The notes: generated by a model from the letters alone, not told the origin. Counted from the first letter of the stretch, positions 15,401 to 56,600 are shown. The stretch: DNA of 64,000 bases from Candidatus Latescibacterota bacterium (GCA_965204375.1 OZ241986.1:2080001-2144000); one strand, 5' to 3'. Made by a program: numbers and translations.

Positions 15401-15719
15401 CCAATCCCTGTAACATCGAGATCGCACCGCTCTCGGGCATCTGTGAACGCGCTGTCTCCAGGTCTTTTGCAGCCCCGTCGTAATCCCCGCGCCGCAACCG
15501 CAACACCCCGCGATTTGCCCACGCAGCCGGCTCATCGGGTTCCATTGTAAGGGCACGGCTCAAACTGGCATCCGCCCGGTCAAAAGCACCCACCTCCAGC
15601 GCGAACACACCCGTATAGAATGCAGAGACATAATCCGCGGATGGCGTAGCCATCTCCTCCTCTCCGCATCCAAGCCCCAACACCACCAACAACCCGATCA
15701 TGCGACGAATATCAAGCAT
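12405..15719 (-). CDS. Lipoprotein with TPR repeats, FG-GAP repeats, ASPIC/UnbV domain and a long C-terminal domain
   Basis: Lipobox LGLGC; TPRs (AAWANRG); DWNND/DCDGDGDPD/DLDNNGALD repeats; VHFGLG...RIVWPNG; KGSCP...GWVKDGDYNT. Start at ATG 15719. Confidence 0.82.
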   Translation of the reverse strand: MLDIRRMIGLLVVLGLGCGEEEMATPSADYVSAFYTGVFALEVGAFDRADASLSRALTMEPDEPAAWANRGVLRLRRGDYDGAAKDLETARSQMPESGAISMLQGLVERSRGQSDAAIAFFEEAAQQGLVKAQYALIKEVERRGGAGSDQEVWVQLEALIKQVPDNPALWLERARQAGKRGDEEALRASVEKLGAWAEGWPDAAQVQLQRLQGEAEGESTLQAMFLHNVLLRDPMYRRALDALIVPAERLGDPVVEFLKLRAPQAMPSPADLDMYFEPELVAGLEGSDWQVLKPFWSKEEVEVVAASVSQVRGTEGIALDFSDVSGMDGMLTVDWNNDFALDLALVGSEGFRLFRRTGDGGIEDVTDSIGLDEREMAGVWGADVEMDGDVDFVLGRSTGPPLVLQNNGDGSFVARELFGNVDGLRGFVWVDCDGDGDPDAAMLDREGQLIEAINERAGVFTPGSKKAVNGIALSAGDLDRDGRLERVVVDRDGAVIAVSQGEIRTLIQGNSTTGPVPLLIADLDNNGALDLVFGKRAYLASEATYHALDLQARVTGVADLTGDGRLDLLGVSNAGEALQLVNRGNLAYHWQAIRPQGGKALGDGRINALGLGSEMELRSGVFYQKQVVTDPVVHFGLGTYTGADLVRIVWPNGMPQVEFDLEVDQVVRAVQRLKGSCPWVFAHNGSEMGFVTDFLWRSPLGMRINAQVVAGIAQTEDWVKIRGDQLAAQNGVYDIRITGELWETHFVDWVSLVAVDHPEGTSIFVDERFAQVAPSLEIYATTQPRPFVIVKDDRGRDMTDRVRVRDGQYVDTFGRGMYQGVTREHYVEVVVGDEVPREGSLWLVGQGWIHPTDSSINVALGQGSHPPPQGLSLHVFDGTDWRVVYPDLGFPAGKRKTVLIDLSGVFPRDIPRKFRLQTNLEIYWDRLAWAVPLEDSVMTIQSVPLARAQLRYRGFSHVTADVSSPEVPDYDVLSGTSQMWRDLVGYYTRYGDVEPLLAQVDDRYAIVNAGDEIQLLFAALPNPGEQVRNFVLKGDGWVKDGDYNTAFSTTVLPLPAHGVLSYDRAPETLEDDPVFKRNAEDWQRFHTRYVTPDWFDRALRNDRP

Positions 15720-17700
15720 CGTGCTCCTTCCATCCCGGTATCGAAATATCCATCCGCCGCTCAGGCGCATAGATCCTATCGCCCTTATAAGGCGTATCCT
15801 GCGTCAAAATATAAATTGCGCCCTCGTACACATACGTAATCTCATCCCTCGGATCTCCCACCACATCTTCTATAACCCCACCCGACCAATCGAATGGCAC
15901 TCCCTCGCACACGGGTTTGATCACCTTGCGACACGCCGCGTCGTAAAACCCGAATGCTTCCGCGCTGGTACTGAGAAACAACAACTCGTGTCCATCGCCT
16001 ACCCAGTTCACAGCCGGTCCACCCTGGCTCGTGTTATCCGGCTCCATCCGGGATAGCGGATCCCCCTGCCCATTCACCAGATTCATAATCCCATAAGTTC
16101 CCCACCGATCGCCCATCCACATCTCCAACCCCGGCAAATCGGGTCTAAAATTCCCCGCGTAAATCCCCTGCACATGCCCATAGCGGTGGTGCCGCAACAA
16201 AGTGCCATCCCGCGCATCCACCAGGAAAAATCCCGGATCGCTCCCCGCAATTCCGACCTCTGGCCCATTGCTCTCATCCCCATCCAATTCCCCAAAAGAA
16301 GCGTGGTCAATATGTCCTGCACCGCCAGAATCCTCGATGTACTCCGCCCCCTCCATTGTCCAGAGATGATTGCCATCCCCATCGTACAGATCGTAACCGG
16401 GCAAAATTTCGTCTCGACCATCTCCATCCACATCGTAAAACCAGATATACATCCCATACCACGCATTGTGCGCATCCTGCCGCCAGCGCAAGTTCAAATT
16501 TTCGTCAAATGCCCAGATCGAATACCCGGTGCCCGCACCGTCACCATCCCGCAAAATCAAATCCTGCGCCTTCTCTGTCTTTCTAATTTTACAGGGCCAG
16601 ATCACCCTGAGCGAATGCAAAACATCTCCCATGCTCGCATTCCTGTATCCCCGATACGGTCCCGTCCTCGGCAATTCTGTTTCCGCTGTCACTTCACCCG
16701 ACTTTCCACTCACCAGCTTTAACCGATCATCCTCAATACCGATAAAATCTTCCACCCCATCCCCATCCAGATCGTGTACCACAGATCTTTGCAGCCCTTT
16801 TGCAGCGGAAAAAGTCCGATCGTATTGCACTTCCCCGTCAAAATTCAAGCACGCGACGCGCACGCCTTCATCCGTCTCCTTCTGCAACACAATTTCCTTT
16901 TGCCCCGCCCCTCTAAAATCGCCGTATCGGACCTCACACGGCCAGAACTCGCCGATATCAATCCGCTTCCACAGCACGGGCTTCGGATACTTCTCCGCCT
17001 CCTCTGCCACCTCTTTTTCATAGGCGTCTAATCGACTCACATACGCGGCATTGGCAGATGCACTCGTTGTAGCGCGCACCGCGCGCATGCGACTTCGCGT
17101 ATTTGTACGCACGCCCACCTTCCCCGTCGGAAAACGATCGTCATAAGCCACAAATGCCTGCTCGCCATTCACATAACACGCAAACCGCTCGCCCTCACAC
17201 ACCACTTTTAGCGCGTAATACTGTCCCCTATCAAATCCATTGGGCAGATCCGCAAGCATCGTCCACGCCTCGTCTTCTCTCCGATAGAGCACAAACCGAT
17301 CAAATCCCTCCATACAAAAATAATAATACTGCCTCAAATCCTGATACCGCACCATAACCCCCGACCGGGCGACAATCGCGTGGGGATCGTCATTCCCCGG
17401 CTGGGTATATGCGTTCAACTGTCGCACCTGCGCTTCCACCGTGTAATCCCCCCACAGCGGCTCACCCGCCACCAGGCACCGATCCGATTTGGCAGTGTGC
17501 TCCAACACCTCTGTGTCGCCATCTTTCACCACCCGATAGTTGCTCAGCATATTCCACTTGGGGGGCGCGACCAGCGCATTCCCCCAGCCCTTGAAATATT
17601 GCTCCTCTATACTCTGATCCGGTTCTGTCTTATCCAGCACCGTCCCCAGCGGACATCCCGTTAGGTCAATCTCCGCCAGCAATTGTTCATTGTTTGCCAT
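15712..17700 (-). CDS. ConA/DUF1080-like N-terminal domain fused to a PL11 (YesW)-like FG-GAP beta-propeller; no signal peptide
   Basis: WGDYTVEAQV...GVMVRYQD..YY...YALKV...GKVGV beta-sandwich, then DLDGDGVED, DVDGDGRDEI..G, GHIDH, GHVQ...GNFRPDLPGLE. Confidence 0.6.
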   Translation of the reverse strand: MANNEQLLAEIDLTGCPLGTVLDKTEPDQSIEEQYFKGWGNALVAPPKWNMLSNYRVVKDGDTEVLEHTAKSDRCLVAGEPLWGDYTVEAQVRQLNAYTQPGNDDPHAIVARSGVMVRYQDLRQYYYFCMEGFDRFVLYRREDEAWTMLADLPNGFDRGQYYALKVVCEGERFACYVNGEQAFVAYDDRFPTGKVGVRTNTRSRMRAVRATTSASANAAYVSRLDAYEKEVAEEAEKYPKPVLWKRIDIGEFWPCEVRYGDFRGAGQKEIVLQKETDEGVRVACLNFDGEVQYDRTFSAAKGLQRSVVHDLDGDGVEDFIGIEDDRLKLVSGKSGEVTAETELPRTGPYRGYRNASMGDVLHSLRVIWPCKIRKTEKAQDLILRDGDGAGTGYSIWAFDENLNLRWRQDAHNAWYGMYIWFYDVDGDGRDEILPGYDLYDGDGNHLWTMEGAEYIEDSGGAGHIDHASFGELDGDESNGPEVGIAGSDPGFFLVDARDGTLLRHHRYGHVQGIYAGNFRPDLPGLEMWMGDRWGTYGIMNLVNGQGDPLSRMEPDNTSQGGPAVNWVGDGHELLFLSTSAEAFGFYDAACRKVIKPVCEGVPFDWSGGVIEDVVGDPRDEITYVYEGAIYILTQDTPYKGDRIYAPERRMDISIPGWKEHDA

Positions 17701-17774: not shown

Positions 17775-19721
17775 TCAAAATACATGCACCACATGTCCCT
17801 GCCCCGGAAACCAGACCAGGTCCACCACAAAAGACAGCGTTACTGCCAGGGCATATCCAACCAACAGACCAATAAAAAAAGGCTGCCACTGGCGGTACAA
17901 CACCATCCCCCCTCCCTTCAGCAACAACCCCTTGACCGCCCAAACCAGAAAGGCCGAAAACGCCAGTTCCCGTGTAAAATTGGTGCCGGGAATGGTCAGC
18001 CCGATCGGGTGAAGCGGCCACCTCGGAAACCGATAACGCAAAAAACTCAGCAGTCCCATCAGCGCGGCACCCATACCGAACAGCATCAGTCGGGTACTGT
18101 CCGTACCCTGTGGCGTCTTCATCTTGGCAACCGCCGCATTAAAGGCCGCTTTGTTCCCACTTCTATAGGGCCACACATCAAAATGATAGGCTCCGTGGAC
18201 ATAGGCCAGGTGAAGTGTAAATGCAAGCGATACCACTACACTCAGCGCCAGGCCAAATACCACAGCCCAGAGCAGAAGGCGTCGATTGCCACGCACAAAA
18301 TCTGCCAGCCGTGCCCCGTGTACCACCCCGGGCATAAACAGTCCCCGGTAGGAAATCAACGCATAGGAAAATGCCAATGCCGTCATCGTCGCCCCCGACA
18401 GGGTACGCGTACCCAGAGCAGCCATCGTAAATGCCTGACCGCTCAGCGGGGTGCGCACATAAATCAACCCGGTCTCCGCCACGATCTTGGCTACTCCCAC
18501 ATACGTCACCAGCGTTGCTAAAATACACAGAATGGCGGCACCATAGGCCATCCCCGCCGCGTGTAACCACAACACCAGGTACCCCAGTCCGATAAACAAC
18601 CCCCATACCGCCGCCCGGTAGCCCATCATCTCATCTGAATCTCCGGCGTTCCGATCCCCTCTAAAAGCACTGCGGAACGCGGTGTAAAAGTGCCTCCGGG
18701 CCATCCACAACCCCCAGCCCACAAATACGGTCAACGCCCCGAACCCCTCCCAGCCCGCCACCTCGTATGACGAGCCCCAACTATCGGAGTTCTTCAAACC
18801 AAATCCCAGACGCCTTAAGATACCCACCTGAAATACATTCAGTACATAAAAAAACCAGACGCTAAACAACACTTCCAGGTTGGCAAAATACACAAACCCG
18901 ATCGTAAACAAATTGAGCTTGATCCGGATCCCGGGGAAATTGCGACCCAGTGGTAGCGATGTTCCAGACCGGTAACTGCCCGTGGGAAATTTAGGTGCCC
19001 CAGGAGAAAAATACGACAGGATGTTCCAGGCAATCATCCCAAATCCCGTCACAGCGCCCGACCAGAACAACCTTCCCCCAATCATCCGTATCCCGTGTTT
19101 TGGCGCCGAGACCAGATCCACCGCCACATTTGCCAGCGGATAGACCAATCGCTCGTGATCCACCCACTGCCGCCGCAACAAAACCGCCAGACAGATCGAC
19201 ACACACGCCGCTGCACCGATAAAACTCAGCCACCAGAACAGTGGCAAAACCCACTCTCCCCACGGCACGGCCTGTCCGGGCGGTAATCCCTCAAAAAACC
19301 ATGTCATCGCCCGCCCGTCTTCCGAGGGCGCCATCCACGGTCTGATGTGATTGTGCAGGTAGGGTGCCCACCCATTCTCCGGTGTAGCAAAATAAAATGG
19401 CGCCGCAAGAATCCCCAACAAATACCCCGGCAGTCCGTCTGCCGCCGGGACCACCGCACTGACCAACCCCATCGTCAACGCCACCAGCAAATCCGAACGT
19501 CCGAACGCCCACTCGGGTTTTTTCGCTTTGAGCACCGGATTCACAATCAGAGCACACAGCACAAAGGGCACAAATAGTGCCAGCGCAAAATTGCTCATGT
19601 TCAACCGGGAGGCCCGCACAATAAACTCAGAATAGGTAGCCCAAACGCTCACCAGCACCACAAAAAACGCCCCCAGAACCACCGCGCGAATCTTAAACCG
19701 ATCGTCTCGCACCTGCGCCAT
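17775..19721 (-). CDS. DUF6785/DUF6784-like polytopic membrane protein (paralog 1)
   Basis: 648 aa, highly hydrophobic; FATPENGW, VPW..W..PLFWW, RQWVDHERLVYP, WPLHPIG, VWFPGQGH; two clear paralogs in the window. Confidence 0.8.
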   Translation of the reverse strand: MAQVRDDRFKIRAVVLGAFFVVLVSVWATYSEFIVRASRLNMSNFALALFVPFVLCALIVNPVLKAKKPEWAFGRSDLLVALTMGLVSAVVPAADGLPGYLLGILAAPFYFATPENGWAPYLHNHIRPWMAPSEDGRAMTWFFEGLPPGQAVPWGEWVLPLFWWLSFIGAAACVSICLAVLLRRQWVDHERLVYPLANVAVDLVSAPKHGIRMIGGRLFWSGAVTGFGMIAWNILSYFSPGAPKFPTGSYRSGTSLPLGRNFPGIRIKLNLFTIGFVYFANLEVLFSVWFFYVLNVFQVGILRRLGFGLKNSDSWGSSYEVAGWEGFGALTVFVGWGLWMARRHFYTAFRSAFRGDRNAGDSDEMMGYRAAVWGLFIGLGYLVLWLHAAGMAYGAAILCILATLVTYVGVAKIVAETGLIYVRTPLSGQAFTMAALGTRTLSGATMTALAFSYALISYRGLFMPGVVHGARLADFVRGNRRLLLWAVVFGLALSVVVSLAFTLHLAYVHGAYHFDVWPYRSGNKAAFNAAVAKMKTPQGTDSTRLMLFGMGAALMGLLSFLRYRFPRWPLHPIGLTIPGTNFTRELAFSAFLVWAVKGLLLKGGGMVLYRQWQPFFIGLLVGYALAVTLSFVVDLVWFPGQGHVVHVF

Positions 19722-21857
19722 TTATTTCACCTCAACGCCCCTCAACGCCTCAATCCGCCAGCCAAATTCCTCCTCCAATTCTTTTGTCCATCCCAGCTTC
19801 AGAAAAGCGATCTGCCCCTCCCGGTTGAGAAACCAGGTTGTGGGAAAGCCCTGAATCCCTGCTTTATTCACATATCCGTCATCGAGCAGAACCGGGAAAG
19901 TATAACCCTTTTCCTCCATCCACGGCGGAACCGACTCGGGATCGCGATCATTATTAATCGTCAAAATCGCCACATCTGGATCATCCTTGTAATGCTCGTA
20001 CAAATTCTGAAACTCCGGCATCTCTTTCACACACCACCCACACCATATCCCCCAAAAATTGATCGCCACGACCTTTCCCTTCAAAGAAGTCAGTGATACT
20101 TGCTTACCCTTTAATGTCTTTAAATTGAACGCAAGAGCGGATTCTGGAGACTCAATCCGAGAAGACAGGACCTCTTGTTTGCGCGTCTCTCGATCCGAAG
20201 CTCTCAAAGGTTTTAAGTAATCTTCGTACCCATCTAAACTCCCGTGTCGCTTCAAATAAAGTGACTTCAGAGCCTGATCATTGGGATTTTTACCCGATGA
20301 TGGGATTACTATACCCATTTTGTAAAATATTTCCGCCTGATCGAAATTGTCCATCGCCTCGTAAACCTGCCCCAAATGGTAAAGTATGTCCTCATCTTTG
20401 GAATTCAACTCATGGGCACGCATCAATTCTCGTTCGGCATCTTCCAAACGCCCTTCCTGAAAAAACACCCATCCGAGAGCATCCGCCATCGTCCCGGTCA
20501 TCCCATTTATGGCCTGTTGATACTCTTCCTCTGAATCGAAGTACTCCCTCTGGCTTTTTAGTTTTTCCCGTCCTGCCGCAACACCATCCCGGGCAATCTG
20601 CTCGGCCTCTCGATAATACGATGTGCGTTCCGCCAGTCTAATCGCACCCCTTGGAAATGTGATATGCGGGTTGAGGTTCTCATATTTAACCATACCCTGC
20701 ACCACATCCAGAGTTTCTTCCGCCGATACAGTAGAATCTCCTCCCATAGAAAAGAAAAGGTTCAGATACGCATCTCCCAACAACCCTTCATTATGGTGTC
20801 GGGGTCGTGCGATAAACGCCCGCAACAGGTCCTGATACGCCTCCTCTTGCTCGGGATCCTGGAAACCCTCTTCACCAGCGGCATCTTCCACCGCGCGATA
20901 GCGCTGCACCAGCACCCACTCCGCCTCCTCACTTTCACCATAGGAACTGAGAATGCGATCCCCAAACATTTTTGCCTTTTCCACATCTTCCAGTCGCAAA
21001 TAGAAATCGTGCAATGTCTTTAGAGAAACCACATCTTCTCCTCGCGCGTTCACAAACGCACCGGCATCAGCCTCAATCTCTGCGAATTTCTCTGCTTCAG
21101 ACTTATTTTTAAGTCGCTCAATCGCCCGCCAGAACCGCAGATGTACCTTTGCATCTGTGGGTGCCAGTTGCGCCGCTTTCTGGTATAGCGGATAGGCTTC
21201 ATCATAACGACGCATCACAGCCAGATAATAGGCCGGTCGAAAATAGCCATTTGCATTGCCGGGATCGGCTTTGCGCGCTTCTGCAAACGCCTTCAGGCAA
21301 TCCTCAAACCTTTCGCTATCGCCTCCCCTATTAGAAGTATAGTACAGCGCATTTCCCTTAACGACCAGAAGCCTGGCTGGATTCTCAACTCGCGTTTTAT
21401 ACTCATCCACAAAAGTAATCGCATTCTCTTTATTGCTTCCATACAGCACATCTGCTCTTGTATTGATGACATCCGCATGGTCAGGTAACATCTCCAGAGC
21501 TTTTTCACTGGCTAAAAGAGCCTCATCCCTACGCTCTTTACCAAGTCGATCAAGTGCGCTCGCAAGCGCGACCCAACCCCACACGCTACTTTCAGGAGAC
21601 GTGACCATCTCTTCAGCGGCGGCAACTGCTTCCTCTTTATTCTCCGCAGCCATGTGATGGATAAACCATGCGCGCAGATGCAAATTATCCGGAAACCGTT
21701 CCACCAGCTTTTTTCCTTCAGCATATCCATCTTTATGATTCCGTATTATTTGCAGAGATCTCAACCTCGCAATCGCCTCTTCTGCTATATCTTGCCCTTG
21801 AATGGGAATAGGACACAAACAACAAAGCAGAACATACAAGACCCATCGATTCATCAT
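19722..21857 (-). CDS. Exported TPR protein with C-terminal TlpA-like thioredoxin (redoxin) domain
   Basis: Signal peptide; TPRs (DALGWVFF..GRL); LKGKVVAINFWGIWCGWCVKEMP...GFPTTWFLNREG. Confidence 0.88.
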   Translation of the reverse strand: MMNRWVLYVLLCCLCPIPIQGQDIAEEAIARLRSLQIIRNHKDGYAEGKKLVERFPDNLHLRAWFIHHMAAENKEEAVAAAEEMVTSPESSVWGWVALASALDRLGKERRDEALLASEKALEMLPDHADVINTRADVLYGSNKENAITFVDEYKTRVENPARLLVVKGNALYYTSNRGGDSERFEDCLKAFAEARKADPGNANGYFRPAYYLAVMRRYDEAYPLYQKAAQLAPTDAKVHLRFWRAIERLKNKSEAEKFAEIEADAGAFVNARGEDVVSLKTLHDFYLRLEDVEKAKMFGDRILSSYGESEEAEWVLVQRYRAVEDAAGEEGFQDPEQEEAYQDLLRAFIARPRHHNEGLLGDAYLNLFFSMGGDSTVSAEETLDVVQGMVKYENLNPHITFPRGAIRLAERTSYYREAEQIARDGVAAGREKLKSQREYFDSEEEYQQAINGMTGTMADALGWVFFQEGRLEDAERELMRAHELNSKDEDILYHLGQVYEAMDNFDQAEIFYKMGIVIPSSGKNPNDQALKSLYLKRHGSLDGYEDYLKPLRASDRETRKQEVLSSRIESPESALAFNLKTLKGKQVSLTSLKGKVVAINFWGIWCGWCVKEMPEFQNLYEHYKDDPDVAILTINNDRDPESVPPWMEEKGYTFPVLLDDGYVNKAGIQGFPTTWFLNREGQIAFLKLGWTKELEEEFGWRIEALRGVEVK

Positions 21858-21872: not shown

Positions 21873-23177
21873 CTATGCTGGCGCGCCATAGACCAGAATC
21901 TTCCGCCGGTCGTAAATCAGCACCTCATCTCTTCCATCCCCATCCAGATCCAACACCATCGCGCCATATCCGATCCCGTAATCATAAGCCCGAAATCCCC
22001 GGATGCGCTGTCTGGGCTGTTTGAAATCCTCTCGAAAGGGAAATTCCATCACCCGGTTGCCGTCGCCATCCATCAGAAACGGCCAGTAAAGATGTGTATC
22101 TTCTGGCTCGCTATCATAGGGCACATCCTCTTGTTGCTTCTTTAAAGCCGGGGCATAAATCACCAGATCCAGCCCGTCATCCCGCCAGCCGCGCACAGCG
22201 TGTTGCGCGTATCCCACACCGGCTTTTTGCCACAGAGCCTGTCCATCGGGTGTATAACACGTCATCCCAATCCACTTTTCATTCAAAATCATCGTCTGCC
22301 CATCTATATCACTGCGAAAACGCCCCACCGTCGTATTCTGCGAATGCTCATGAGGGCGTCTCCAGATCACCTCGCCCTGCGTATTCGCCACAAAAAAATC
22401 TCTGCTACCCGAATACGCAATTTCAATCTCTCCATCCCCATTGAGATCCACCGGATTGATATTATCCGCATGCTCTGCCGTGGCATTTTCCACTGGAATC
22501 GACCACAACAAAGTCCCATCGCTATCCACCAGATTATACCCGATCAACATCTCGTCGCACCCATCGCCATCCACATCGATCAAAACCGGCGCATGCCCTG
22601 CCCCGTGATAATGCGGCGTCATCCACAACTCTGACAAATCGCTATCCAAAACATAAGTCGGATTGCCGTATTCATAAGGCGGATAAGCACCATCATTGAC
22701 CTTCACCACGAGTTGCTGCCGCGTCGGATCGCCCCTCAAACTCCCTGCCTTCACCTGGGAAAAATTATCTGCTGGCAACTTCTTCTTTGCCTGCACCTCG
22801 CCCGTTTCCCCGTCAAAAATCGTCAGCACATCCCACACAATCGCAACCACCTCCGCCTTCCCATCGCCATCTACATCAGCCGTAAGAAAATCATTGCCCC
22901 CATGCGCGCAGTACGGATCTGACCCCCGATGAGGCTCGCCCATCTGCCATAGCTGATTGCCCTCCAGGTCAATCGCCGTAATGCAGAACAAATGCCGTTC
23001 CTCGTCCGTATTCCATCCCCGCTCAATATAGAGATCCGACTTCAACTGCCCTGGACTCTGCCGCAACAAAAACTCCAGCTTTCCATCGCCATTCACATCC
23101 GCCACAATCATCTGCCCACCGACACCTTCCACATCCAGTTCCCACAGCAACCGCGCATCGCTCCGTGCTTCACCCAT
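21873..23177 (-). CDS. PL11-like FG-GAP beta-propeller protein; no signal peptide
   Basis: DVNGDGKLE, DVDGDGKAEV, GAGH, DVDGDGCDEMLIGY, EHAD, HSQ...GRFR. Motifs align by eye with the C-terminal half of 15712-17700. Confidence 0.6.
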   Translation of the reverse strand: MGEARSDARLLWELDVEGVGGQMIVADVNGDGKLEFLLRQSPGQLKSDLYIERGWNTDEERHLFCITAIDLEGNQLWQMGEPHRGSDPYCAHGGNDFLTADVDGDGKAEVVAIVWDVLTIFDGETGEVQAKKKLPADNFSQVKAGSLRGDPTRQQLVVKVNDGAYPPYEYGNPTYVLDSDLSELWMTPHYHGAGHAPVLIDVDGDGCDEMLIGYNLVDSDGTLLWSIPVENATAEHADNINPVDLNGDGEIEIAYSGSRDFFVANTQGEVIWRRPHEHSQNTTVGRFRSDIDGQTMILNEKWIGMTCYTPDGQALWQKAGVGYAQHAVRGWRDDGLDLVIYAPALKKQQEDVPYDSEPEDTHLYWPFLMDGDGNRVMEFPFREDFKQPRQRIRGFRAYDYGIGYGAMVLDLDGDGRDEVLIYDRRKILVYGAPA

Positions 23178-23198: not shown

Positions 23199-24797
23199 TC
23201 AATCCTCTTCCACAACCACAACGCGATCTATCCCAACATCTTCCAACACCTGCACGCGCCCACTCACCCAGCGCACCTCAATGCGATCCACGCGACGCGC
23301 ATTGCCCAGCCCAAAATGCAGACGCAAATCGCTCGCTGACAAATAGCTCGACTGACTTCGAACCTCGCGCACCTGGATCTTTCCCCCCGCACTCACATGC
23401 ACCACTGCCCCAATCCCATCCCTATTTGAAAACCCCTGTCTCGTCTCCTGCATACCCCCCACCAGCTTTACAACGATCCAGTGTCCCGCGTCCCCTACTT
23501 CGTTGCGAAACACCCGCGCACGCTGTCCCGAATGCAACACCACCAGATCCTGATCGCCATCCCCATCCAGATCGCCAACCGCTGACCCGCGACTCACCCC
23601 AGGCGTTTCAACGCCTGCATTGACCACCTCAAATCGCCCGTCCGCATTGCGAAATATTTGATCCGCCTGTAAATAGGACTCAGCCCTGGAAAACGCCTGT
23701 ACATTCGGAAAAATATGCCCATTTGCCACAAACAGATCCAGATCGCCATCGTTGTCATAATCAAAAAAATGAGTGCCAAATCCCAGAGGCAGCAGAGATG
23801 CGCCAGCAATACCGGTTAGCGCGCTGACCTCTGTAAAAAACCCGCCCGTCCTGCACAGATAAATCGCATTGGTCTCGTAGGAAAAATTCGTCACAAAAAT
23901 ATCTGATCGCCCGTCCCCATCAACATCCCCCACATCAACCCCCATCCCCGCCTGCGTCCGGCCCTGCGCATTAAACGCCACACCCGCCTCTATACCCACA
24001 TTCTCAAACCGCCCGCCCGCATTGCGGTACAAAAAATTTGGCGTCGTATCATTCGCCACATAGAGATCGGTATCCCCATCCCCATCGTAATCCAGACTCA
24101 CCACCCCAAGCCCTTTGCCCGAAGAATCCGCCACACCCGCCTCAAAGGACACATCTGTAAATAGTCCATTCCCCTCATTCCGATAAAGCAAATCCGGTGC
24201 CCCCTCAAAATAGCCCGGATCGCAATACGTGCGAATGCCCACCCGCTCACAATGCGGCTCGGTTTTCACATCATACGTCAAATAGCGCACCACATACAAA
24301 TCCAGATCGCCATCCCCATCTGCATCAAAAAAGGTGGCACCAGCAGACCATCCACCGCCATCCACCCCCGCGTTCTTTTCCACAAAACCGCCACGACCAT
24401 CATTTTGATACAGCACATTGGCATCATAACCCGTCGTATAAAGATCGAGATCGCCATCATTGTCATAATCCCCAACCGTACACCCCATGCCATACCCAAC
24501 ACCAGGCGCACCCGGCACAGCAGAAAATCGAAACCCGCCATCGTTTCGATAAAGCGCGTTCTCGCCGCCCGCCTGCCCGTGTTCTCCATTGACAAAATAC
24601 AGATCCAGATCCCCATCCCCATCCGCATCAAACACCGCACACCCCGATCCCATGGTTTCCAAATAATGCCAATTTCCCCGCGCGCCAGTCCGATGCACAA
24701 ACGATATGCCAGACGCTTCTGCGACCTCCACAAATTGCTCTGCGGCAACAGAACTCGCGTACAAAAAAACAAACAAAAAAACAGCTTTCTTCATCAT
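23199..24797 (-). CDS. CRTAC1/ASPIC-UnbV family FG-GAP protein (exported)
   Basis: Signal peptide; ETMGSG, several DxDGDGDLDL repeats, GKGLGV, AGMGV; SNRDGIGA...SSYLSASDLRLHFGLG. Confidence 0.92.
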   Translation of the reverse strand: MMKKAVFLFVFLYASSVAAEQFVEVAEASGISFVHRTGARGNWHYLETMGSGCAVFDADGDGDLDLYFVNGEHGQAGGENALYRNDGGFRFSAVPGAPGVGYGMGCTVGDYDNDGDLDLYTTGYDANVLYQNDGRGGFVEKNAGVDGGGWSAGATFFDADGDGDLDLYVVRYLTYDVKTEPHCERVGIRTYCDPGYFEGAPDLLYRNEGNGLFTDVSFEAGVADSSGKGLGVVSLDYDGDGDTDLYVANDTTPNFLYRNAGGRFENVGIEAGVAFNAQGRTQAGMGVDVGDVDGDGRSDIFVTNFSYETNAIYLCRTGGFFTEVSALTGIAGASLLPLGFGTHFFDYDNDGDLDLFVANGHIFPNVQAFSRAESYLQADQIFRNADGRFEVVNAGVETPGVSRGSAVGDLDGDGDQDLVVLHSGQRARVFRNEVGDAGHWIVVKLVGGMQETRQGFSNRDGIGAVVHVSAGGKIQVREVRSQSSYLSASDLRLHFGLGNARRVDRIEVRWVSGRVQVLEDVGIDRVVVVEED

Positions 24798-46361: not shown

Positions 46362-46459
46362 TCTTAAACCTCAAGAAACGCATATCCACTGAGTTGGATA
46401 TGAAACAAATATATGTTTATAGATGATTTATGAAAAATTGAAGATAGGATATAGAGAAT

Positions 46460-46476: not shown

Positions 46477-46517
46477 TATGTGACGAATAGTACCCAGAGC
46501 CAGAAGCGGTATGAAAC

Positions 46518-46554
46518 AATAAAGGGGGAACACGGTTTGTGTTCCCCCTTTATT
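46518..46554 (-). terminator. Intrinsic terminator of the intact LacI gene
   Basis: Perfect 16-bp inverted repeat AATAAAGGGGGAACAC-GGTTT-GTGTTCCCCCTTTATT. Confidence 0.85.
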
Positions 46555-46602
46555 CATCAGGAGTAGTCAATCATCTAATCGGCACTATTGTATATAATAC
46601 CT

Positions 46603-47628: not shown

Positions 47629-47719
47629 TAGATAACCCCTTTGCCAGGTAAACGACATAAACACTACAGAATTTAACAATTTTCGCAGAGATATGCTAAC
47701 AAATCAGGTTTATTTTTTT

Positions 47720-50045: not shown

Positions 50046-51107
50046 ATGAAACTCGTCGAAACCGATCCCAACTCCGGCACTGAAATCTACCAACTCATTG
50101 ACGATCCCCGCCCCGCCGACAACATCTATGGCGAACAACCCTATTCCTCGGCTGATGGAAGCCGCGTCACAATCCGATATTACCCCCAAAACAACCAAGA
50201 TGGCGGCCTCTCCTTCCTCGACCTCACAGACGGCAGTCTCCACACTGTACTCGCCGAAGCACCCCGTTTCCCCGCCTTTCACGCCTGGGGCGAACACCTC
50301 TACTACCAGCAACAAGACGGGGACGCGCTTGTACTCAAACGCTGCAACTATCAGACCCTCGAAAAAGAAGACATCACAGCTTTGCCAACCGAAGAGGGCC
50401 GATTCAGCTACGGCACCACTTCCCAGGACGGGCGTTACTACGCTGCCAGTGTCCATCCCGAAGGCGGATCGAGCAAAGTCTGGTGTACAGACCTCTCAAC
50501 CGGGAAAAGCGGCACCCTTGCCCAGCGGGAGGACTACCACTTCAAACACGAGCAATTCTCCCTCGACGGCAACAACCGCATCCTCATTCAGGCCAACAAA
50601 ATGCCCGACGTCAAATTCGTCCACCTCGGTGCCCTTGAACCCGACCGCGAAGGCATCACCTGGTTTCCCGTCGATCGCCCCCACACGCCGCGGCCCACCG
50701 GTCACGAAACGTGGATTGGCACAACCGACCACATCTTCATCTCCACTGGGCAAGACGAAGACAGCGAAGGCAATGTCTGGACTGCGGGCTTACGCGACAA
50801 TGCCCCAAATCTGGTCAGCAAAACCCCCCACCGCTTCGGTCACGTCAGCGTCTCCCGCTGTGGCCGATACTGGGTTGGGGACGCCACCCAGGAAGAAAAC
50901 ATCCCCATCCACATCGGTTCTCTCGAATCGGGTCGTCACAAATGCCTCGTCCTCAGCCGCACTGAACACGATAGCAACCAGTGGTCGCACACCCATCCTT
51001 ACATGACCTCTGACAATGCGTGGCTCATCTACACCTCCACCCGCAGCGGCCACCCCCAGGTCTATGGTGCAAAAATTCTACAGGAGTTCTTAGATAGTCT
51101 TTTATAA
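50046..51107 (+). CDS. Oligogalacturonate lyase (Ogl/PL22)-like beta-propeller
   Basis: TDPNSGTEIYQL, HEQFS, GHETW, FGH, HTHPYMTSDNAWLIYTS.R.G.PQVY; no signal peptide. Confidence 0.65.
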   Translation: MKLVETDPNSGTEIYQLIDDPRPADNIYGEQPYSSADGSRVTIRYYPQNNQDGGLSFLDLTDGSLHTVLAEAPRFPAFHAWGEHLYYQQQDGDALVLKRCNYQTLEKEDITALPTEEGRFSYGTTSQDGRYYAASVHPEGGSSKVWCTDLSTGKSGTLAQREDYHFKHEQFSLDGNNRILIQANKMPDVKFVHLGALEPDREGITWFPVDRPHTPRPTGHETWIGTTDHIFISTGQDEDSEGNVWTAGLRDNAPNLVSKTPHRFGHVSVSRCGRYWVGDATQEENIPIHIGSLESGRHKCLVLSRTEHDSNQWSHTHPYMTSDNAWLIYTSTRSGHPQVYGAKILQEFLDSLL

Positions 51108-51120: not shown

Positions 51121-53088
51121 TCACCATCCATGTACCCCATGCCCCGCATCTGGAAACCAGATTATATCCACCACCTTGGAGACCCCAATCCCGAACAAAT
51201 ACCCCACAATCGCCCCGTACCAAAACGGCAGTGACCGCCGGTAAAGACTCACGCCCCCAAACTGGATGACAAAGGTCTTCATCAACCACACAATCAGCAA
51301 ACAAAACCCGTATCGCCCCACAGGCAAAGCAATCGCCGCCGGATGAAACGGCCACCAGGAGACCCGCGCCTTCAAATAAGTCAGCACCCCTGCCTCTGCA
51401 AATCCAAAAAGCCACACTCCCAACTTCTGCGGATCGAACACCGTCAGCTTGCTCCCCTCAATCAACGACACCCTGCCCATCAGCACACCCCAGTCCCACA
51501 GCGCCATGTGCCCGTTCAGACCGCCCTCGGTATAACACCGGTAAAGCTGCGCGCCCACAGAAGCCACAAAACCCGTCACAAACGCCACCGGGATACAGCC
51601 CCAGATCAGCGGATGCCGCCGCAGGTGATCGCCCAACATCCGAAAAAAATGCGTCACCGACGGGATACACGTAATCCGGATCGGCACGCCGCAAAGCGCA
51701 TTGCTATTCACCAGCCAGATAGACGTCTGTGTCGCAGGTGGCAGATTCGACGTTCCACCCAGCGATAGGAGCACATCGGCTCCCTTCCCCCCCGCAGGAG
51801 ACAAAAAAATAAATCCCGTAGTCGCCGCGTATTTGGTAATCCCAAAAAAACAGATAAACAGCAACAATAACTGCACCAGCATCACGGGAAACCGCATCCC
51901 GGCAGACACCATCCACCCGCCCAAAAACACCGCCGAAGACAACAGCCCCAGCCACGCCGTACGATAAGAAACCGGAGTCCCGTCATCGTCCTCTCGCCTC
52001 CTTTCAAACGCCTTTTGCAGCGTCTCCCGCAAATGCCCTCTGGCGACCCACACCGACCATCCCACCAGAAAAACCAGCGCCCCGTGCGATTCCAGCATCG
52101 CGATCTCCCCGCCCATCGCTGGCTGCCCGGGCAAACCCACCGTAAACCCCGTGCGGTTCAGCAACCCCTTTTTCAAAATATTCACAAAATCGTAAAACCA
52201 GAAACTGAACAAAATATCCAGCGGGCATAAATACGCCAGCCCCATAATCATCGGCTGCACCCGCAAAAAATAATCCGGAAAATGATGTCCCAGGGGCACG
52301 GCTTTGTACGTCGTCGAATAAAACAGGGTAATAGGCGGCAAGCTGAGCGCGAAATACCCGATAATATTCCAGCCAATAATCCCCGCCACAAAACTGAACC
52401 CAATCCAGAACACCTTGTTCTTAAACACATCCGGCACCCGACTGCCCGCAGACTGCCTCAGCATATCCATCGGAAACGTCGCCATCGGGAAAACCAGCCG
52501 CTCCTTCTCGTGCCACTGTTTGTAAAAAATTACACTCGAAAAAAAACCCGCCCCAACCAGCGACAAACACGCCATCAACCACCAGAACAGCGGCCGTACC
52601 CAGGCTAACCACGGGATAGCCCCATCCACCTCCACCCCGGTAAACAACTGCCCGATCACCGCCTCCGATTCTTCTGGAAACAGCCAGCGCGGGAAATAGG
52701 GCATCACCACCTCTCGCATCCGGTTCTCAGGCGAGGCATAGTGAGCCGGAGCTGCTATATCGGTCACCATATACATCGCCCACCCAATACCCGGCAAATT
52801 CCCCACCAGCCACACCATGAAAAACACCGTCAACATCTCCATTCGGGACAGTGCCCACCCCCGCGCAAACAGCTTCAACACCGTATTGATCCCCAGCCAA
52901 ACCACAAACGGCAGAGCCACGGCTACGGGCATGTAATTCTTCACCAGATTCCGTCCGAAATAGGACATGAAAAGCGCCATCCCCACAATCGTGAGCACAC
53001 CTATCACCAGCGCGCGTCCCGTCACCCGTTCGCGGAGTGCCCCGGCCCGTTCTTCCACCACCTGCTTTTTATCGGCGGCAATGCTCAT
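51121..53088 (-). CDS. DUF6785/DUF6784-like polytopic membrane protein (paralog 3)
   Basis: YASPENR, IPW.AW.RPLFWW, KQWHEKERLVFP, LFSFWFY, SYRTA..G, WWPFHP, IWFPDAGH. Confidence 0.8.
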   Translation of the reverse strand: MSIAADKKQVVEERAGALRERVTGRALVIGVLTIVGMALFMSYFGRNLVKNYMPVAVALPFVVWLGINTVLKLFARGWALSRMEMLTVFFMVWLVGNLPGIGWAMYMVTDIAAPAHYASPENRMREVVMPYFPRWLFPEESEAVIGQLFTGVEVDGAIPWLAWVRPLFWWLMACLSLVGAGFFSSVIFYKQWHEKERLVFPMATFPMDMLRQSAGSRVPDVFKNKVFWIGFSFVAGIIGWNIIGYFALSLPPITLFYSTTYKAVPLGHHFPDYFLRVQPMIMGLAYLCPLDILFSFWFYDFVNILKKGLLNRTGFTVGLPGQPAMGGEIAMLESHGALVFLVGWSVWVARGHLRETLQKAFERRREDDDGTPVSYRTAWLGLLSSAVFLGGWMVSAGMRFPVMLVQLLLLFICFFGITKYAATTGFIFLSPAGGKGADVLLSLGGTSNLPPATQTSIWLVNSNALCGVPIRITCIPSVTHFFRMLGDHLRRHPLIWGCIPVAFVTGFVASVGAQLYRCYTEGGLNGHMALWDWGVLMGRVSLIEGSKLTVFDPQKLGVWLFGFAEAGVLTYLKARVSWWPFHPAAIALPVGRYGFCLLIVWLMKTFVIQFGGVSLYRRSLPFWYGAIVGYLFGIGVSKVVDIIWFPDAGHGVHGW

Positions 53089-53104: not shown

Positions 53105-54373
53105 TCATCGCAATTGCTCCAGCAATCCCAAAGCCGCATCGACAATCTGCTCGCCACACCCCGGTGCAAAGACGCTCGCCTCCGGCTCATATCCCCCTTC
53201 TTCATAAGACTGCCTCGTCGGCAAATAACCCACCGAATCATTGGCCAGTTCGATCACTATCGTCTGCGAAAACGGTGACCGGGCTTTCAAATCCAATCCC
53301 AACTCCACCAACAACTCCCCCGGCACAGCCGCAATCCCCAGGTCCCCAATGCGAAGTGCCTGCACCCATGTCCGCACCCGATCCGGCACATCGGTCATGC
53401 GCCTGGTTATTCGTCGCACAAAAGCGCGCTCGGCCATCGTGGGACGCGCCATATTTTCAATCTCCCTCACCCGCGCCATATCGACCTCCGAAGGTGCTGG
53501 CTTGCGTGCCAGAACCACCTCTTGCATCGCCGCTCCAAGAGACACATCGGATGCAAAATCCATCTCATTCCACACCCACAAAACACCCGCTGCAATCAGC
53601 CCCGCCACGCGTTCTGCATGCAGAGAACGGTCTTTCACAGGACGCCTATCCCCCAGCACATCTATATTATTGATATCTCCACACGCGCCATTTGAAAGCG
53701 CCGCGACAAAAGAGGCATTCCGCATCCGCTGAATCAGCGTTGAAAAAATTCCAAAATAATCCGCGGAGATCGAATAAGTGGATTCGGGCATACCGATATA
53801 ATGCAGCGCGTAATTGGCCAGCAAACCAATCGCCCCCCCATCAACCCCCTGCAAACACACCACGCCAATCTCCGGATCAATCGGTCCCATTGGCGCCACC
53901 ACATCGGGATTGCCCACCCCCGGATTCGTGCGCACCGATCCATCGCCCATGCGATAGCGGCGGTTAAAAACCACGCGGTCCTCCAACGTCTGCCCAAATC
54001 CCACCTGTGCAGGCTTTCGCTCCTGCCACGCCAGCCTGACCGCATCGGCGATCCGATCAATTAAAAACGCCGTATAAGCATCATCGCCCGTGACCGCCCC
54101 CGTGTGGGTATGCGTGCAACAAATCAAAACCCGTTCCGCACTCAGTTCCGTCTCCACAGCGATCCGTTCCTTCGCGCGGTCCAGATAATCTCGCTTCACC
54201 CCGATCAAATCGCACACCACAATCGCCACGCCTTCCCCTTCTCGTTCCACCACAAAACTGCGCACATGCAATGGATCGCGCACCTTCTCTGCAAACCGAT
54301 CCTGAAACGATCCCGGAATCATCGTACCCAGCGGTGGTGTAATATCCAGACATGCAGCTCCTGCGGTGATCAT
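53105..54373 (-). CDS. Neutral/alkaline ceramidase-like amidohydrolase
   Basis: DITPP, DPLHVR, CTHTHTG, NYALH, ISADY.G, GACGDIN, PGEL, ELANDSVGYLP...GGYE; AAGGAG RBS before ATG 54373. Confidence 0.8.
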   Translation of the reverse strand: MITAGAACLDITPPLGTMIPGSFQDRFAEKVRDPLHVRSFVVEREGEGVAIVVCDLIGVKRDYLDRAKERIAVETELSAERVLICCTHTHTGAVTGDDAYTAFLIDRIADAVRLAWQERKPAQVGFGQTLEDRVVFNRRYRMGDGSVRTNPGVGNPDVVAPMGPIDPEIGVVCLQGVDGGAIGLLANYALHYIGMPESTYSISADYFGIFSTLIQRMRNASFVAALSNGACGDINNIDVLGDRRPVKDRSLHAERVAGLIAAGVLWVWNEMDFASDVSLGAAMQEVVLARKPAPSEVDMARVREIENMARPTMAERAFVRRITRRMTDVPDRVRTWVQALRIGDLGIAAVPGELLVELGLDLKARSPFSQTIVIELANDSVGYLPTRQSYEEGGYEPEASVFAPGCGEQIVDAALGLLEQLR

Positions 54374-54395
54374 AGAACACTCCTTTGAAAAAATT

Positions 54396-56600
54396 CTACG
54401 CCTTCCCCATTGCTTGTAGTGATCGCCACGAATGAATCCCCGTCCGCCCCCAGGCCATCTCGGAAGGTACCGACTCATTGCCCGCCCGATCTACGGCCGT
54501 CACGCGATAATAATACGTTGTCGAACACCAGTAGGGCGTGGCCGAAGGCAACCCCCAGTCAATCCATCTCGGCTCTGAGGGCGAGGCAATCAGTGTGCGC
54601 TGATCGCAGACAAAATTGGGATCCGTACTGGCGTACACATTGTAGTGATGGAAATCCGAATCCGATACAGGTGCCCAGGTCACCTGTAATTCCGACACAT
54701 CGCCAGTCTCCACTTCTACCCCCGTCACCTGTGCCGGAGGCATCGCGTCTTCCCCACCCTTTTCGGAAGGAATATATGCGGCATCATCAGTCAGCAGCAA
54801 TTGATCCAGCTTCACATCCCGATTTGATGTTGCCGCCGTCAACACATGCGCATCCCCATCCAGATTCAGCACAACAGGTCTCCCGCGTGCGTCCAGAACC
54901 CGCACCCATCCCCAATCATCCACCACAGCCTCACAGCACCCCACCTCCCGGTCATCGCACCGTATATTGAATCCCAAAATGTGACCATGTTTTCCCGCCA
55001 CCCGCGCCCACAGACCATAGGCCCCGGACCTCGGCACATCCACATCCATGTGTACCCGCCCCGACTGCTCATTATCCTTCAACGCCACAAAATACAGATT
55101 GGACGCTCGTCCATCGAACTGGTCGGTTAACCCTTCTCGCCGCCCCAGTTCCGGTTCGATAAATAGCCGCACAGGCTCTTCTCGCGGCCCACTTCCCAAC
55201 CGCACTTCAGCAGAAGGTCGCCCCTCCAGCCCGGAATATTCCACCATCGCCACCCGGTAAAACGCCGTGCCCTCCCTGTGCGTTCTGTCTTCAAAAGCTT
55301 CACCGGTCACAATCCCCTCACTGATCTGCTCAAATCCCTCGCCCGATTCTCGACTTCGGTACACGTAATATCCCTTCAACTCTTTTGAGCGCGTGGGACG
55401 CTCCCACGCCAGTTCTACTCCCTGATTGCCCAATTCGGCCCGCAATCCCACGGGTGGATCGGGTCTTTTCAACACAGCCACATACACCTCGCCCCATAGC
55501 CCCACCATATCCGAATCAAAAACCACCTTGGTCCCATCGGGACTTACAATCGGCGCCGGATGTGTGGACTCGGCATCCGGATGCATCGCTCCCCAGCCCT
55601 GATAGGAGCTATTGTGGTGACAGATCTGGTGAATCCGCCCCCGCTCTTCAGTATGAATCAGCAAAATCTGATTGGCGTATGGGCCTCTATCCGTCACATC
55701 TGAAACAATCCACTCGTTGTCAAAACTCCATCCCCCGTGCATGCCACCCGACAGATTGACGACTTGTCGCCTGTTCGTGCCATCTTTGTCCATTACCCAG
55801 ATACTCGACTCTGAAGCATAAGACCATGCGTGCCCATCGTGCGCCCAATCCGGATGTCCCGCCTGTCCACAGGGCAACTCTGTTTTATCCGTTCCATCCG
55901 CCTGGATGATATAACTGCCCAGCCTCACCTCTTTGACTGGATCGTTCAAATTGTAAAAGATGGAATAATCTGCCCCCCGCGTGAACCGCAGCCGGTGAAT
56001 ATTGCCCTCAATGGGTACTGCTCGCTGTTTTCCGCTCTGGATATCGATCAGATAAACCGTCCACACCTTTTGATCCGGGTCCTTTCGCCCCCGCACCAGA
56101 AGTTTCTTCTCATCGCTGCTCGGCGGACAAAATTCCACGTTGTGTTGCAGATCTACCGACGCGAGTTCTCGGCTTTTTCCCGTCTTTACATCGACTGAAC
56201 AGAACGCCGTCCGAGAGCCGCGATTAGCGGAATAATACATCAAGTCCGGCTTCAAACCACTCCACAAAGGCCGCGGCACCCGTCCTTCTTCACCGCGAAT
56301 ATGCAATTCTCGAATCCGCCCTCCATCCGCATCCATAAGCCAGTTTCCCCCGTGTTCGCCCGGCCGCCGCGATACAAAAAACAATGCGGAACCATCGGCA
56401 TTCCACGCTGGAATATCGTAATAAATATGCCGCGAAATCGCCGGATCGTGCGTCAGTTTCCACACCTCGGCCTGCGTTCCCCTATCCCGAAAAATCGTGC
56501 GCTCAGACGGGTAAGCATCTCCATTTTTCAGCTTCTCATACGGCTTGTGCCCGTCCCGCACCGAAAGTGCCTCCAGGTTGTGTGAGCGGTCAATAGCCAT
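54396..56600 (-). CDS. Ogl/TolB-like beta-propeller fused to FN3 and carbohydrate-binding-like domains; no signal peptide
   Basis: FRDRGTQAEVWKLT, GHPDW, THPAPIVSPDGTKVVFDSD; FN3-like GYYVYRS and YYYRVTAVDRAGNES; GAYGLWARV...LDQLLLT. Confidence 0.65.
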   Translation of the reverse strand: MAIDRSHNLEALSVRDGHKPYEKLKNGDAYPSERTIFRDRGTQAEVWKLTHDPAISRHIYYDIPAWNADGSALFFVSRRPGEHGGNWLMDADGGRIRELHIRGEEGRVPRPLWSGLKPDLMYYSANRGSRTAFCSVDVKTGKSRELASVDLQHNVEFCPPSSDEKKLLVRGRKDPDQKVWTVYLIDIQSGKQRAVPIEGNIHRLRFTRGADYSIFYNLNDPVKEVRLGSYIIQADGTDKTELPCGQAGHPDWAHDGHAWSYASESSIWVMDKDGTNRRQVVNLSGGMHGGWSFDNEWIVSDVTDRGPYANQILLIHTEERGRIHQICHHNSSYQGWGAMHPDAESTHPAPIVSPDGTKVVFDSDMVGLWGEVYVAVLKRPDPPVGLRAELGNQGVELAWERPTRSKELKGYYVYRSRESGEGFEQISEGIVTGEAFEDRTHREGTAFYRVAMVEYSGLEGRPSAEVRLGSGPREEPVRLFIEPELGRREGLTDQFDGRASNLYFVALKDNEQSGRVHMDVDVPRSGAYGLWARVAGKHGHILGFNIRCDDREVGCCEAVVDDWGWVRVLDARGRPVVLNLDGDAHVLTAATSNRDVKLDQLLLTDDAAYIPSEKGGEDAMPPAQVTGVEVETGDVSELQVTWAPVSDSDFHHYNVYASTDPNFVCDQRTLIASPSEPRWIDWGLPSATPYWCSTTYYYRVTAVDRAGNESVPSEMAWGRTGIHSWRSLQAMGKA

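Follow-up and report, generated by a model that had tools for sequence, protein, structure and literature searches.

DUF6785/DUF6784 membrane proteins of a Candidatus Latescibacterota bacterium: a multiplied family predicted to share the OPT/Yellow Stripe transporter fold

Background

What do three related membrane proteins of about 650 amino acids (aa), encoded in a 64,000-nucleotide stretch of a Candidatus Latescibacterota genome (GCA_965204375.1 OZ241986.1:2080001-2144000, hereafter the window), contribute to the cell that carries them: are they transporters, and if so, in which direction do they work and on what cargo? A preliminary description of the window took them for a new family of stand-alone secondary importers, perhaps with an OPT-like fold, that feed oligouronates to cytoplasmic depolymerases encoded nearby. 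Latescibacterota are uncultured and thought to degrade algal polymers (PMC4454575); the transporters mentioned in the excerpted part of that genome survey are symporters, ABC and PTS systems, with no carrier of the OPT type among them.

Here we analyze the three proteins, which all belong to the Pfam families DUF6785 and DUF6784, together with their relatives and gene neighbourhoods. The reading that we favour, and hold to be reasonably probable, is that they are OPT-fold, single-polypeptide, proton-coupled nutrient importers of the inner membrane, present as 47 diversified paralogs and partly linked to an outer-membrane uptake cassette.

Results

The predicted fold is that of barley Yellow Stripe 1

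An AlphaFold2 model of paralog 1, generated from an alignment of 93 DUF6785 family members (alignment A2), reached a mean predicted local distance difference test score (pLDDT) of 94 and a predicted template modelling (TM) score of 0.94. When this model was compared with the PDB by Foldseek, two chains were significant, 7wst and 7wsr, both of them barley Yellow Stripe 1 (HvYS1; E 1.7e-8, about 2e-8, probability 1.0, TM 0.62-0.66); all remaining matches had E >=0.019 and TM about 0.1. An independent search of 48,161 chains again returned 7wsr_A, with a Z score of 22.9 and a root-mean-square deviation of 4.0 A over 549 of 600 residues, the alignment spanning residues 6-643 of the model and 46-668 of the chain. 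The runner-up chain scored Z 5.2, and the background Z for helical proteins is about 14 by the tool's own statement. The OPT-like fold, a guess in the preliminary description, is thus strongly supported, HvYS1 being the sole structural match and covering nearly the whole chain of the model; the proposal of stand-alone polytopic transporters is supported by the same predicted fold. Among MFS proteins, the best score was Z 5.0 (SLC15A3), with partial alignments only, and this fold was rejected.

The structural report on HvYS1 describes a symporter driven by protons, made up of transport core plus scaffold, and proposes an elevator mechanism; core and scaffold of YS1-type proteins are both built of inverted repeats (PMC9691689). 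Since the HvYS1 match crosses both Pfam 'domains', DUF6785 and DUF6784 form one fold, and in the model the two together are the counterpart of transport core plus scaffold.

Several observations at the sequence level weigh against a relation to OPT proteins. The OPT model PF03169 stayed below its cut-off of 25.8 bits in all 47 copies and genome-wide; the best score, 20.3 bits (E 3.4e-4), fell on one DUF6785 gene, and a Pfam scan of the three window paralogs at E<=1e-3 gave no OPT match. Comparison by hhalign of A2 with A3, a shallow alignment of 10 canonical OPT proteins that come from other families of the same phylum, yielded a probability of 1.1% and an E value of 0.047, yet the two were collinear over 513 columns. 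A sequence-profile search of the PDB returned 0 matches. As no link to OPT was found at the sequence level, we call the proteins OPT-fold and refrain from placing them in the OPT family by sequence; DUF6785/DUF6784 is probably a very divergent branch of the transporters sharing the OPT/Yellow-Stripe fold (Transporter Classification (TC) 2.A.67).

The missing sequence-significant link to any characterised transporter would also suit the idea that the fold match is a helical-bundle coincidence and that the proteins are membrane enzymes of a GT-C/polymerase-like kind, or receptors. This we regard as highly improbable, in view of the distance between the Z score for HvYS1 and both the runner-up and the helical background; moreover, GT-C and polymerase chains were looked for and found in neither the Foldseek nor the 48,161-chain list.

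A weak match to the OPT model was seen in an 813-aa ORF (open reading frame) of no Pfam family at another locus (L045; G000:C1:1806167-1806427, E 7.5e-4, positions 529-619), whose product adjoins a 1,504-aa FtsX-like protein and a DUF6785 gene.

A catalogued but unstudied family

Three polytopic paralogs had been claimed, and minus-strand ORFs of the expected length, all of them DUF6785 plus DUF6784, were found in the places given for them (Table 1). Paralogs 1, 2 and 3 matched PF20581 (DUF6785, cut-off 25) with 371.4, 370.6 and 281.0 bits (E 8e-111, 1.5e-110 and 2e-83) over profile positions 1-498, i.e. the whole model, and C-terminally PF20580 (DUF6784, cut-off 26.4) with 67.9, 74.9 and 51.6 bits (E 1e-18, 6e-21 and 1e-13). 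In A2, 23 columns were invariant across the 93 members, including E115, N116, W157, W164, W186, E190, P195, W289, R342, P572, W594, G605, D634, G642 and H643; the conserved charged residues of the family are E115, E190, R342, D634 and H643. The motifs quoted in the preliminary description are all present in the three-way alignment, with core residues that are invariant or at least 90% conserved in the 93 members.

The family is not new, being already in Pfam. DUF6785/DUF6784 is a large, catalogued, unstudied family without assigned function: neither name occurs in any paper of the literature searched, NCBIfam has no family model matching the three transporters, and homologues, mostly from Latescibacterota metagenome bins, are named only 'hypothetical protein' or 'DUF6785 family protein'. 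An HMMER search of 1.84 billion cluster representatives retrieved 7,788 at E<=1e-3 and 2,900 at E<=1e-30.

The family is strongly expanded and largely stands alone

The 6.34-Mb single-contig genome contains 47 places matching PF20581, one of them interrupted by TGA, compared with 0 in 14 control genomes. With a crude codon-usage caller, by which all genes of the genome were predicted, 47 gene pieces were recovered at 46 of these 47 places, amounting to about 1% of the predicted genes. Within the same genus and order, 21 genomes were searched, the present one among them, and each gave between 22 and at least 44 DUF6785 matches. Canonical OPT proteins were detected in 17 of the 61 genomes of the phylum that were searched, and in none of the 19 belonging to families f1 and f2, which carry the DUF6785 expansion.

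In a quick maximum-likelihood IQ-TREE phylogeny of 45 full-length paralogs, two deep clades were separated by old divergences (median terminal branch 0.47); the larger clade includes paralogs 1 and 2, and paralog 3 falls into a clade of 12 members. It had been stated that no ATPase or binding protein accompanies the three proteins, which is true in the window according to the Pfam scan and holds for 45 of the 47 loci of the genome. The exceptions are L033, with an ABC binding protein of its own and two permeases, and L040, with an ABC exporter-type gene. The interrupted copy (G000:C1:3727110-3728624), probably a pseudogene, lies directly behind an outer-membrane cassette of the type described below and, with its single in-frame TGA, was predicted as two parts of 529 and 112 aa.

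An outer-membrane cassette is the specifically enriched neighbour

Gene neighbourhoods were compared in two ways. First, the 403 genes located within five genes of a DUF6785 gene, which make up 8.4% of the genome's genes, were grouped into BLAST families. Second, as many as four genes per side that share the strand and are separated by gaps of <200 bases were counted as operon mates; all 143 resulting proteins were scanned with Pfam, as were 127 of the 128 mates of 40 random control anchors (500-800 aa, 37 of them with mates) chosen outside DUF6785 neighbourhoods.

Both comparisons singled out the same group of genes, a cassette whose core has a fixed order: a TonB-receptor-like protein, then a protein of about 770-780 aa with no family, then a PorV-like barrel. 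Of the 16 members of the ~770-aa family without Pfam match, 10 had a DUF6785 gene no more than five genes away (8.4% expected, p 8e-8), and the corresponding numbers were 11/20 for the ~330-aa PorV/FadL-like barrels (p 1e-7), 9/17 for the ~1,040-aa CarboxypepD_reg+Plug receptors (p 2.5e-6) and 4/10 for a family of small outer-membrane protein (OMP) barrels. Cassette genes accounted for 19 of the 143 operon mates, compared with 0 of 127 in the control (p 3e-6); counted by locus, 7/47 DUF6785 genes and 0/40 control anchors had such a mate (p 0.014). Directly upstream of 6 of the 47 DUF6785 genes stood a PorV-like gene (0.4% chance per gene, binomial P 5e-8). Out of 15 complete cassettes in the genome, 10, including the one in the window, have a DUF6785 gene on the same strand among the next five genes downstream; in 6 cases it is the very next gene, and paralog 2 is the fourth gene downstream of the window cassette (35027-42473). 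In other genomes the cassette order was found upstream of DUF6785 in 24 of 77 loci, many of which are close kin and not independent; the cassette-bearing loci include records labelled Gemmatimonadota or Gemmatimonas (L086, L146).

The receptor combines CarboxypepD_reg and Plug domains in the window and in five DUF6785 operon mates elsewhere. A SusD-family gene is absent: behind the receptor comes a gene whose product measures 851 aa in the window and 718-806 aa at other loci and matches nothing in Pfam at E<=1e-5. Cassette-linked DUF6785 copies occur in both deep clades. That they form a single clade was rejected, as 3 changes are needed on the tree, no better than shuffles.

The TonB-receptor cassette is a specifically enriched neighbour, which fits an importer and does not name the cargo; an inward direction of transport is supported by this operon link to TonB-dependent receptors. 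Two counts weigh on the other side. Thirty-seven of the 47 DUF6785 copies have no cassette nearby, and downstream of the four cassettes lacking DUF6785 we found no MFS, SSF or ABC gene, which speaks against a fixed transporter slot at this place but, as a test, is uninformative either way.

TonB-dependent receptors have their classic role in the uptake of siderophores. Import of siderophore-like metal chelates in the manner of YSL proteins, downstream of such receptors, would also agree with the best structural match, given that HvYS1 carries Fe(III)-phytosiderophore according to the excerpted report (PMC9691689). We nevertheless consider it very unlikely, as forty-seven paralogs per genome are far beyond the needs of metal uptake, and siderophore synthesis, reductase and Fur-type genes were not seen among the 143 operon mates. 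In addition, the receptors carry the CarboxypepD_reg N-domain, which is typical of SusC-like nutrient receptors.

Neighbouring genes do not single out glycans

An enrichment of carbohydrate-active enzymes (CAZymes) around family members, as an oligosaccharide importer would lead one to expect, was not significant in this genome. Pfam thresholds differed between the two sets (E<=1e-8 for control mates, E<=1e-5 for DUF6785 mates), and CAZyme-type mates are therefore given both ways: 6/143 compared with 2/127 in the control at E<=1e-8 (p 0.29), and 8 compared with 2 when weaker matches were allowed on the DUF6785 side only (p 0.11). GFO/IDH/MocA oxidoreductases likewise numbered 6/143 versus 2/127 (p 0.29).

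Further results count, together with the CAZyme numbers, against the importer reading. Sulfatases were found in 6/143 DUF6785 and 13/127 control mates (p 0.06), PhyH proteins in 6/143 and 6/127 (p 1), and MR_MLE and TIM-barrel genes were equally common in control operons. Six of the 47 DUF6785 genes have no operon mate at all, and at some loci the neighbours are plainly unrelated (GroES/EL, McrBC, HsdM, PrmA). Genome-wide, BLAST families comprised ~181 sulfatase-like, ~96 PhyH-like and ~85 GFO/IDH/MocA-like genes in 6.3 Mb. Because the genome as such is rich in genes of these types, the sugar-like look of the neighbourhoods is not specific to the DUF6785 family, and the sugar theme may reflect the genome itself. 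In the random control operons, many sulfatase and PhyH genes lay side by side.

An import of peptides, glycopeptides or amino-acid derivatives by OPT-fold proteins, with the cassette as a RagA/B-like peptide uptake system, would be in line with the missing CAZyme enrichment and with mates such as peptidase M20, Aminopep, amidase, subtilase, creatininase, amidohydrolases and two ceramidase-like amidohydrolases; the only structural relative, moreover, comes from a family known for peptides, glutathione and amino-acid-derived metal chelates. Yet peptidase or amidase mates are few (about 5/143), control operons contain peptidases as well (M81, M55, M20, M48, S26), the mates also include sugar-type oxidoreductases, isomerases, a fucosidase, GHL6, sialidase-like and PL11/PL22-like proteins, and LacI-type regulators lie near paralog 3. 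We judge this explanation unlikely. With regard to the cargo class, glycan-derived oligomers are a tentative assignment that falls somewhat short of an even chance, and peptide- or amide-type compounds appear clearly less likely. Oligouronates in particular, the cargo named in the preliminary description, are not supported, the basis for them being two remote lyase-like propellers in one window.

Secreted proteins near the family

Signal peptides were called by eye and with a Kyte-Doolittle window, i.e. from hydrophobicity only and with no trained predictor. The suggestion that the neighbours of the transporters are cytoplasmic is not general, as an N-terminal hydrophobic stretch was present in 42/143 operon mates and 20/127 controls. 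In the window, seven proteins named earlier as free of a signal peptide passed this crude test, but many other neighbours have an N-terminal hydrophobic stretch: those at 10612, 12405, 19722, 23199, 24794, 28234 and 29168, and also at 35027, 36024, 38597, 41715 and 43049. Two families of secreted proteins are frequent within five genes of DUF6785, namely large TPR proteins (8/21 genes, p 2e-4) and FG-GAP/ASPIC proteins (5/7 genes); the latter five sit at only 4 DUF6785 loci and are therefore not independent. TPR proteins of 829-1,192 aa are encoded directly downstream of several DUF6785 genes (L058, L064, L053; in the window at 32063-34957 (+)), and at four DUF6785 loci a member of the large TPR family is the third gene downstream on the same strand.

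These secreted proteins would be at home with an outward or envelope-biogenesis role, in which a small molecule or lipid-linked precursor is exported or flipped and then used by the adjoining secreted proteins; a Polysacc_synt flippase gene adjoins DUF6785 at one locus and a GT28 gene at another. Against this stand HvYS1, the solved member of the fold, which is reported in the excerpted source to be a proton-driven importer (PMC9691689), the last-gene position in TonB-dependent uptake operons, which fits import, and the cytoplasmic catabolic enzymes that follow several copies. An export function or envelope role seems to us quite unlikely.

The window locus of paralog 3

Paralog 3 closes a compact string of five genes, in which it is preceded, in this order, by genes for a DUF3604 metallohydrolase, an esterase, a PL22-like propeller and a ceramidase-like amidohydrolase (Table 1). 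The earlier assignments of esterase (BD-FAE), ceramidase-like protein and PHP-like hydrolase (DUF3604/CehA-type) were confirmed by Pfam/NCBIfam. Elsewhere in the genome, a second ceramidase-like gene belongs to the string upstream of another DUF6785 copy (L061), and a second DUF3604 gene adjoins a DUF6785 copy of the paralog-3 clade (L035).

The PL22-like propellers of the preliminary description fared differently. For the 54396-56600 protein, the likeness is remote and partial: it exceeds the PF14583 cut-off of 30, but of the 386 positions of the Ogl model only the last third, 241-374, is matched. Aligned with PDB 3pe7 (E 1e-6), it retains three histidines (chain motifs THEFW, SHL and the first His of THPHP), which we take to be metal-binding or catalytic; the second His of THPHP is replaced by Ala. 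The 50046-51107 protein could not be assigned to PL22, and shows a weak likeness to the N-terminal part of the 54396 protein (E 0.001). Two LacI-family genes (45310..47679) are candidate regulators of the paralog-3 operon.

Three studies supplied RNA-library contigs (X1, coral-labelled; X2 and X3, sponge-labelled; X5) that align to the paralog 3 region with 90-99% likeness; in X1, records span the gene junctions at 51257-53737 and 54148-57966. As their depth is flat, no strand is given and DNA carry-over is possible, these contigs are no evidence of transcription or co-transcription. Contigs of related strains in runs X2 and X3 join 54386 to 56618, where no PL22-like gene is present, and contigs of run X5 join across 57485-59808, where the DUF3604 gene is absent. 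Both genes are therefore dispensable at this place.

An FGE-sulfatase (formylglycine-generating enzyme-like) gene with signal peptide (43049-44149 (+)) overlaps the long N-terminal extension of a di-haem cytochrome c peroxidase ORF (43803-45230 (+)), whose true start is probably further downstream.

The window string of paralogs 1 and 2

Paralogs 1 and 2 are part of a densely packed string of at least 12 genes, from 31381 down to about 9058, which encodes secreted or lipid-anchored TPR, FG-GAP/ASPIC, thioredoxin-fold and multihaem proteins along with two PL11-like propellers. Of the latter, both noted in the preliminary description, the 21873-23177 protein lies above the PF21348 cut-off of 27 in two partial stretches, part of which may be driven by FG-GAP repeats, and matches YesX, YesW and a PL11 protein in the PDB (E 1e-8 to 4e-8); the 15712-17700 protein remains below this cut-off and did not match YesX or YesW, but is a paralog of the former (E 9e-20). 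The start of paralog 2 overlaps the stop of the upstream 301-aa protein gene by 1 base, and the two are probably translationally coupled; with 0 bases between paralog 1 and the 19722-21857 gene, that junction looks similar. Neither the 301-aa protein nor the TPR + AhpC/TSA protein recurs beside other DUF6785 copies.

GC skew of the + strand is about -0.3 at 4000-32000 and 48000-60000, where genes run on the minus strand. Long shadow ORFs occur on the opposite strand, e.g. 26513-27607 (+) inside paralog 2.

Table 1. Features of the window discussed in the text (positions counted from the first letter of the 64,000-nucleotide stretch)
Feature	Position	Strand	Basis and remarks
Two FG-GAP/ASPIC proteins (TPR + lipoprotein signal; membrane-anchored), downstream of paralog 1	10612..15770	-	Pfam
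Weak 3-keto-disaccharide-hydrolase-like N-part + PL11-like propeller, no signal peptide seen	15712..17700	-	RGL11_C (PF21348) 25.9 bits
DUF6785/DUF6784 paralog 1, 648 aa, predicted OPT-fold transporter	17775..19721	-	Pfam, AlphaFold2 model, HvYS1 match
Secreted TPR + AhpC/TSA (thioredoxin-fold) protein, abuts paralog 1 start	19722..21857	-	Pfam; signal-peptide-like N-terminus
PL11-like FG-GAP propeller, no signal peptide seen	21873..23177	-	PF21348 54.3 bits
Secreted FG-GAP/ASPIC-UnbV protein	23199..24797	-	Pfam; signal peptide
Secreted TPR protein directly downstream of paralog 2	24794..26272	-	Pfam; N-terminus
DUF6785/DUF6784 paralog 2, 651 aa	26279..28234	-	Pfam, 42% identity to paralog 1
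Secreted 301-aa protein of no family	28234..29139	-	No Pfam match; signal peptide
Multihaem cytochrome c + HEAT + TPR lipoprotein, string head	29168..31381	-	Pfam; lipobox-like N-terminus
Cassette: PorV/FadL-like barrel	35027-35968	-	Pfam, signal peptide
Cassette: 851-aa protein of no family	36024-38579	-	No Pfam match, signal peptide
Cassette: CarboxypepD_reg+Plug, TonB-receptor-like	38597-41692	-	Pfam, signal peptide
Cassette: OMP beta-barrel	41715-42473	-	Pfam, signal peptide
LacI-family gene, sugar-binding domain only	45310-46215	-	Pfam; candidate regulator
LacI-family gene with helix-turn-helix	46603-47679	-	Pfam; candidate regulator
353-aa propeller-like protein of no family, convergent with paralog 3	50046..51107	+	No Pfam or PDB match
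DUF6785/DUF6784 paralog 3, 655 aa, other deep clade	51121..53088	-	Pfam, 30% identity to paralog 1, tree
Ceramidase-like amidohydrolase, no signal peptide seen, directly upstream of paralog 3	53105..54478	-	PF04734 40.7 bits
PL22 (oligogalacturonate lyase)-like propeller + fn3, no signal peptide seen	54396..56600	-	PF14583 36.4 bits
BD-FAE / alpha-beta hydrolase esterase, no signal peptide seen	56620..57477	-	Pfam
DUF3604 / CehA-McbA-type metallohydrolase, no signal peptide seen	57502..59871	-	PF12228; NF038032 82.8 bits

Discussion

A possible route for organic nutrients

By analogy with HvYS1, a DUF6785 protein would act in the inner membrane as a single-polypeptide, proton-coupled, elevator-type symporter and carry organic nutrients from the periplasm to the cytoplasm; direction of transport, proton coupling and cargo class are what we infer from HvYS1 and from operon position. 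At about one fifth of the loci, DUF6785 is the last gene of an outer-membrane uptake operon consisting of OMP, TonB receptor, ~780-aa protein and PorV-like barrel, with the ~780-aa protein probably located at the surface or in the periplasm. Nutrients may then pass the outer membrane through the TonB receptor and the inner membrane through DUF6785. The 47 old paralogs suggest a radiation, presumably to different cargoes. The cargo of paralog 3 is probably an esterified or amidated oligomer, which would be dismantled in the cytoplasm by the hydrolase- and lyase-like enzymes without signal peptide, and paralogs 1 and 2 would work amid a string of secreted proteins with two presumably cytoplasmic PL11-like propellers.

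A bolder version of the importer reading, which we consider rather doubtful, would make DUF6785 the dedicated inner-membrane partner of the SusD-less cassette. The two would then constitute a two-membrane import route for glycan oligomers in Latescibacterota and neighbouring phyla, in which an OPT-fold lineage had shifted from peptides and metal chelates to carbohydrates, with about fifty specificities per genome, and had taken the role that MFS permeases play in the polysaccharide utilization loci (PULs) of Bacteroidota.

With 22 to about 50 copies in each of the genomes searched, the family may provide one of the main uptake routes for organic nutrients in this lineage. The structure searches found one solved OPT-fold structure, from a plant, and OPT-fold transport in these bacteria would enlarge the range of cargoes and of taxa known for the fold.

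Comparison with known systems

HvYS1 and the OPT family (PF03169) resemble the DUF6785 proteins in fold over ~550 residues, in similar length, and in being a single polypeptide with no accessory ATPase. They differ in that sequence identity is 12-13%, that DUF6785 is prokaryotic and massively multiplied, and that its genes lie in catabolic and outer-membrane-uptake loci, not in a context of metal homeostasis.

In pectinolytic enterobacteria, Ogl (PL22) is fed by oligogalacturonide import through TogT/TogMNAB. The locus of paralog 3 recalls this arrangement in that a PL22-like propeller without signal peptide is encoded two genes upstream of the transporter gene, whereas the window protein matches only the last third of the Ogl model, has one motif His changed to Ala, and its gene is missing at the same place in some relatives.

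PULs of Bacteroidota use MFS-type permeases. They share with the cassette-linked DUF6785 loci the presence of an inner-membrane secondary transporter in one operon with a SusC-like receptor (CarboxypepD_reg + Plug). In the loci described here, by contrast, the predicted transporter fold is OPT and not MFS, a ~780-aa protein and a PorV-like barrel stand instead of SusD, and CAZymes are sparse in the DUF6785 operons.

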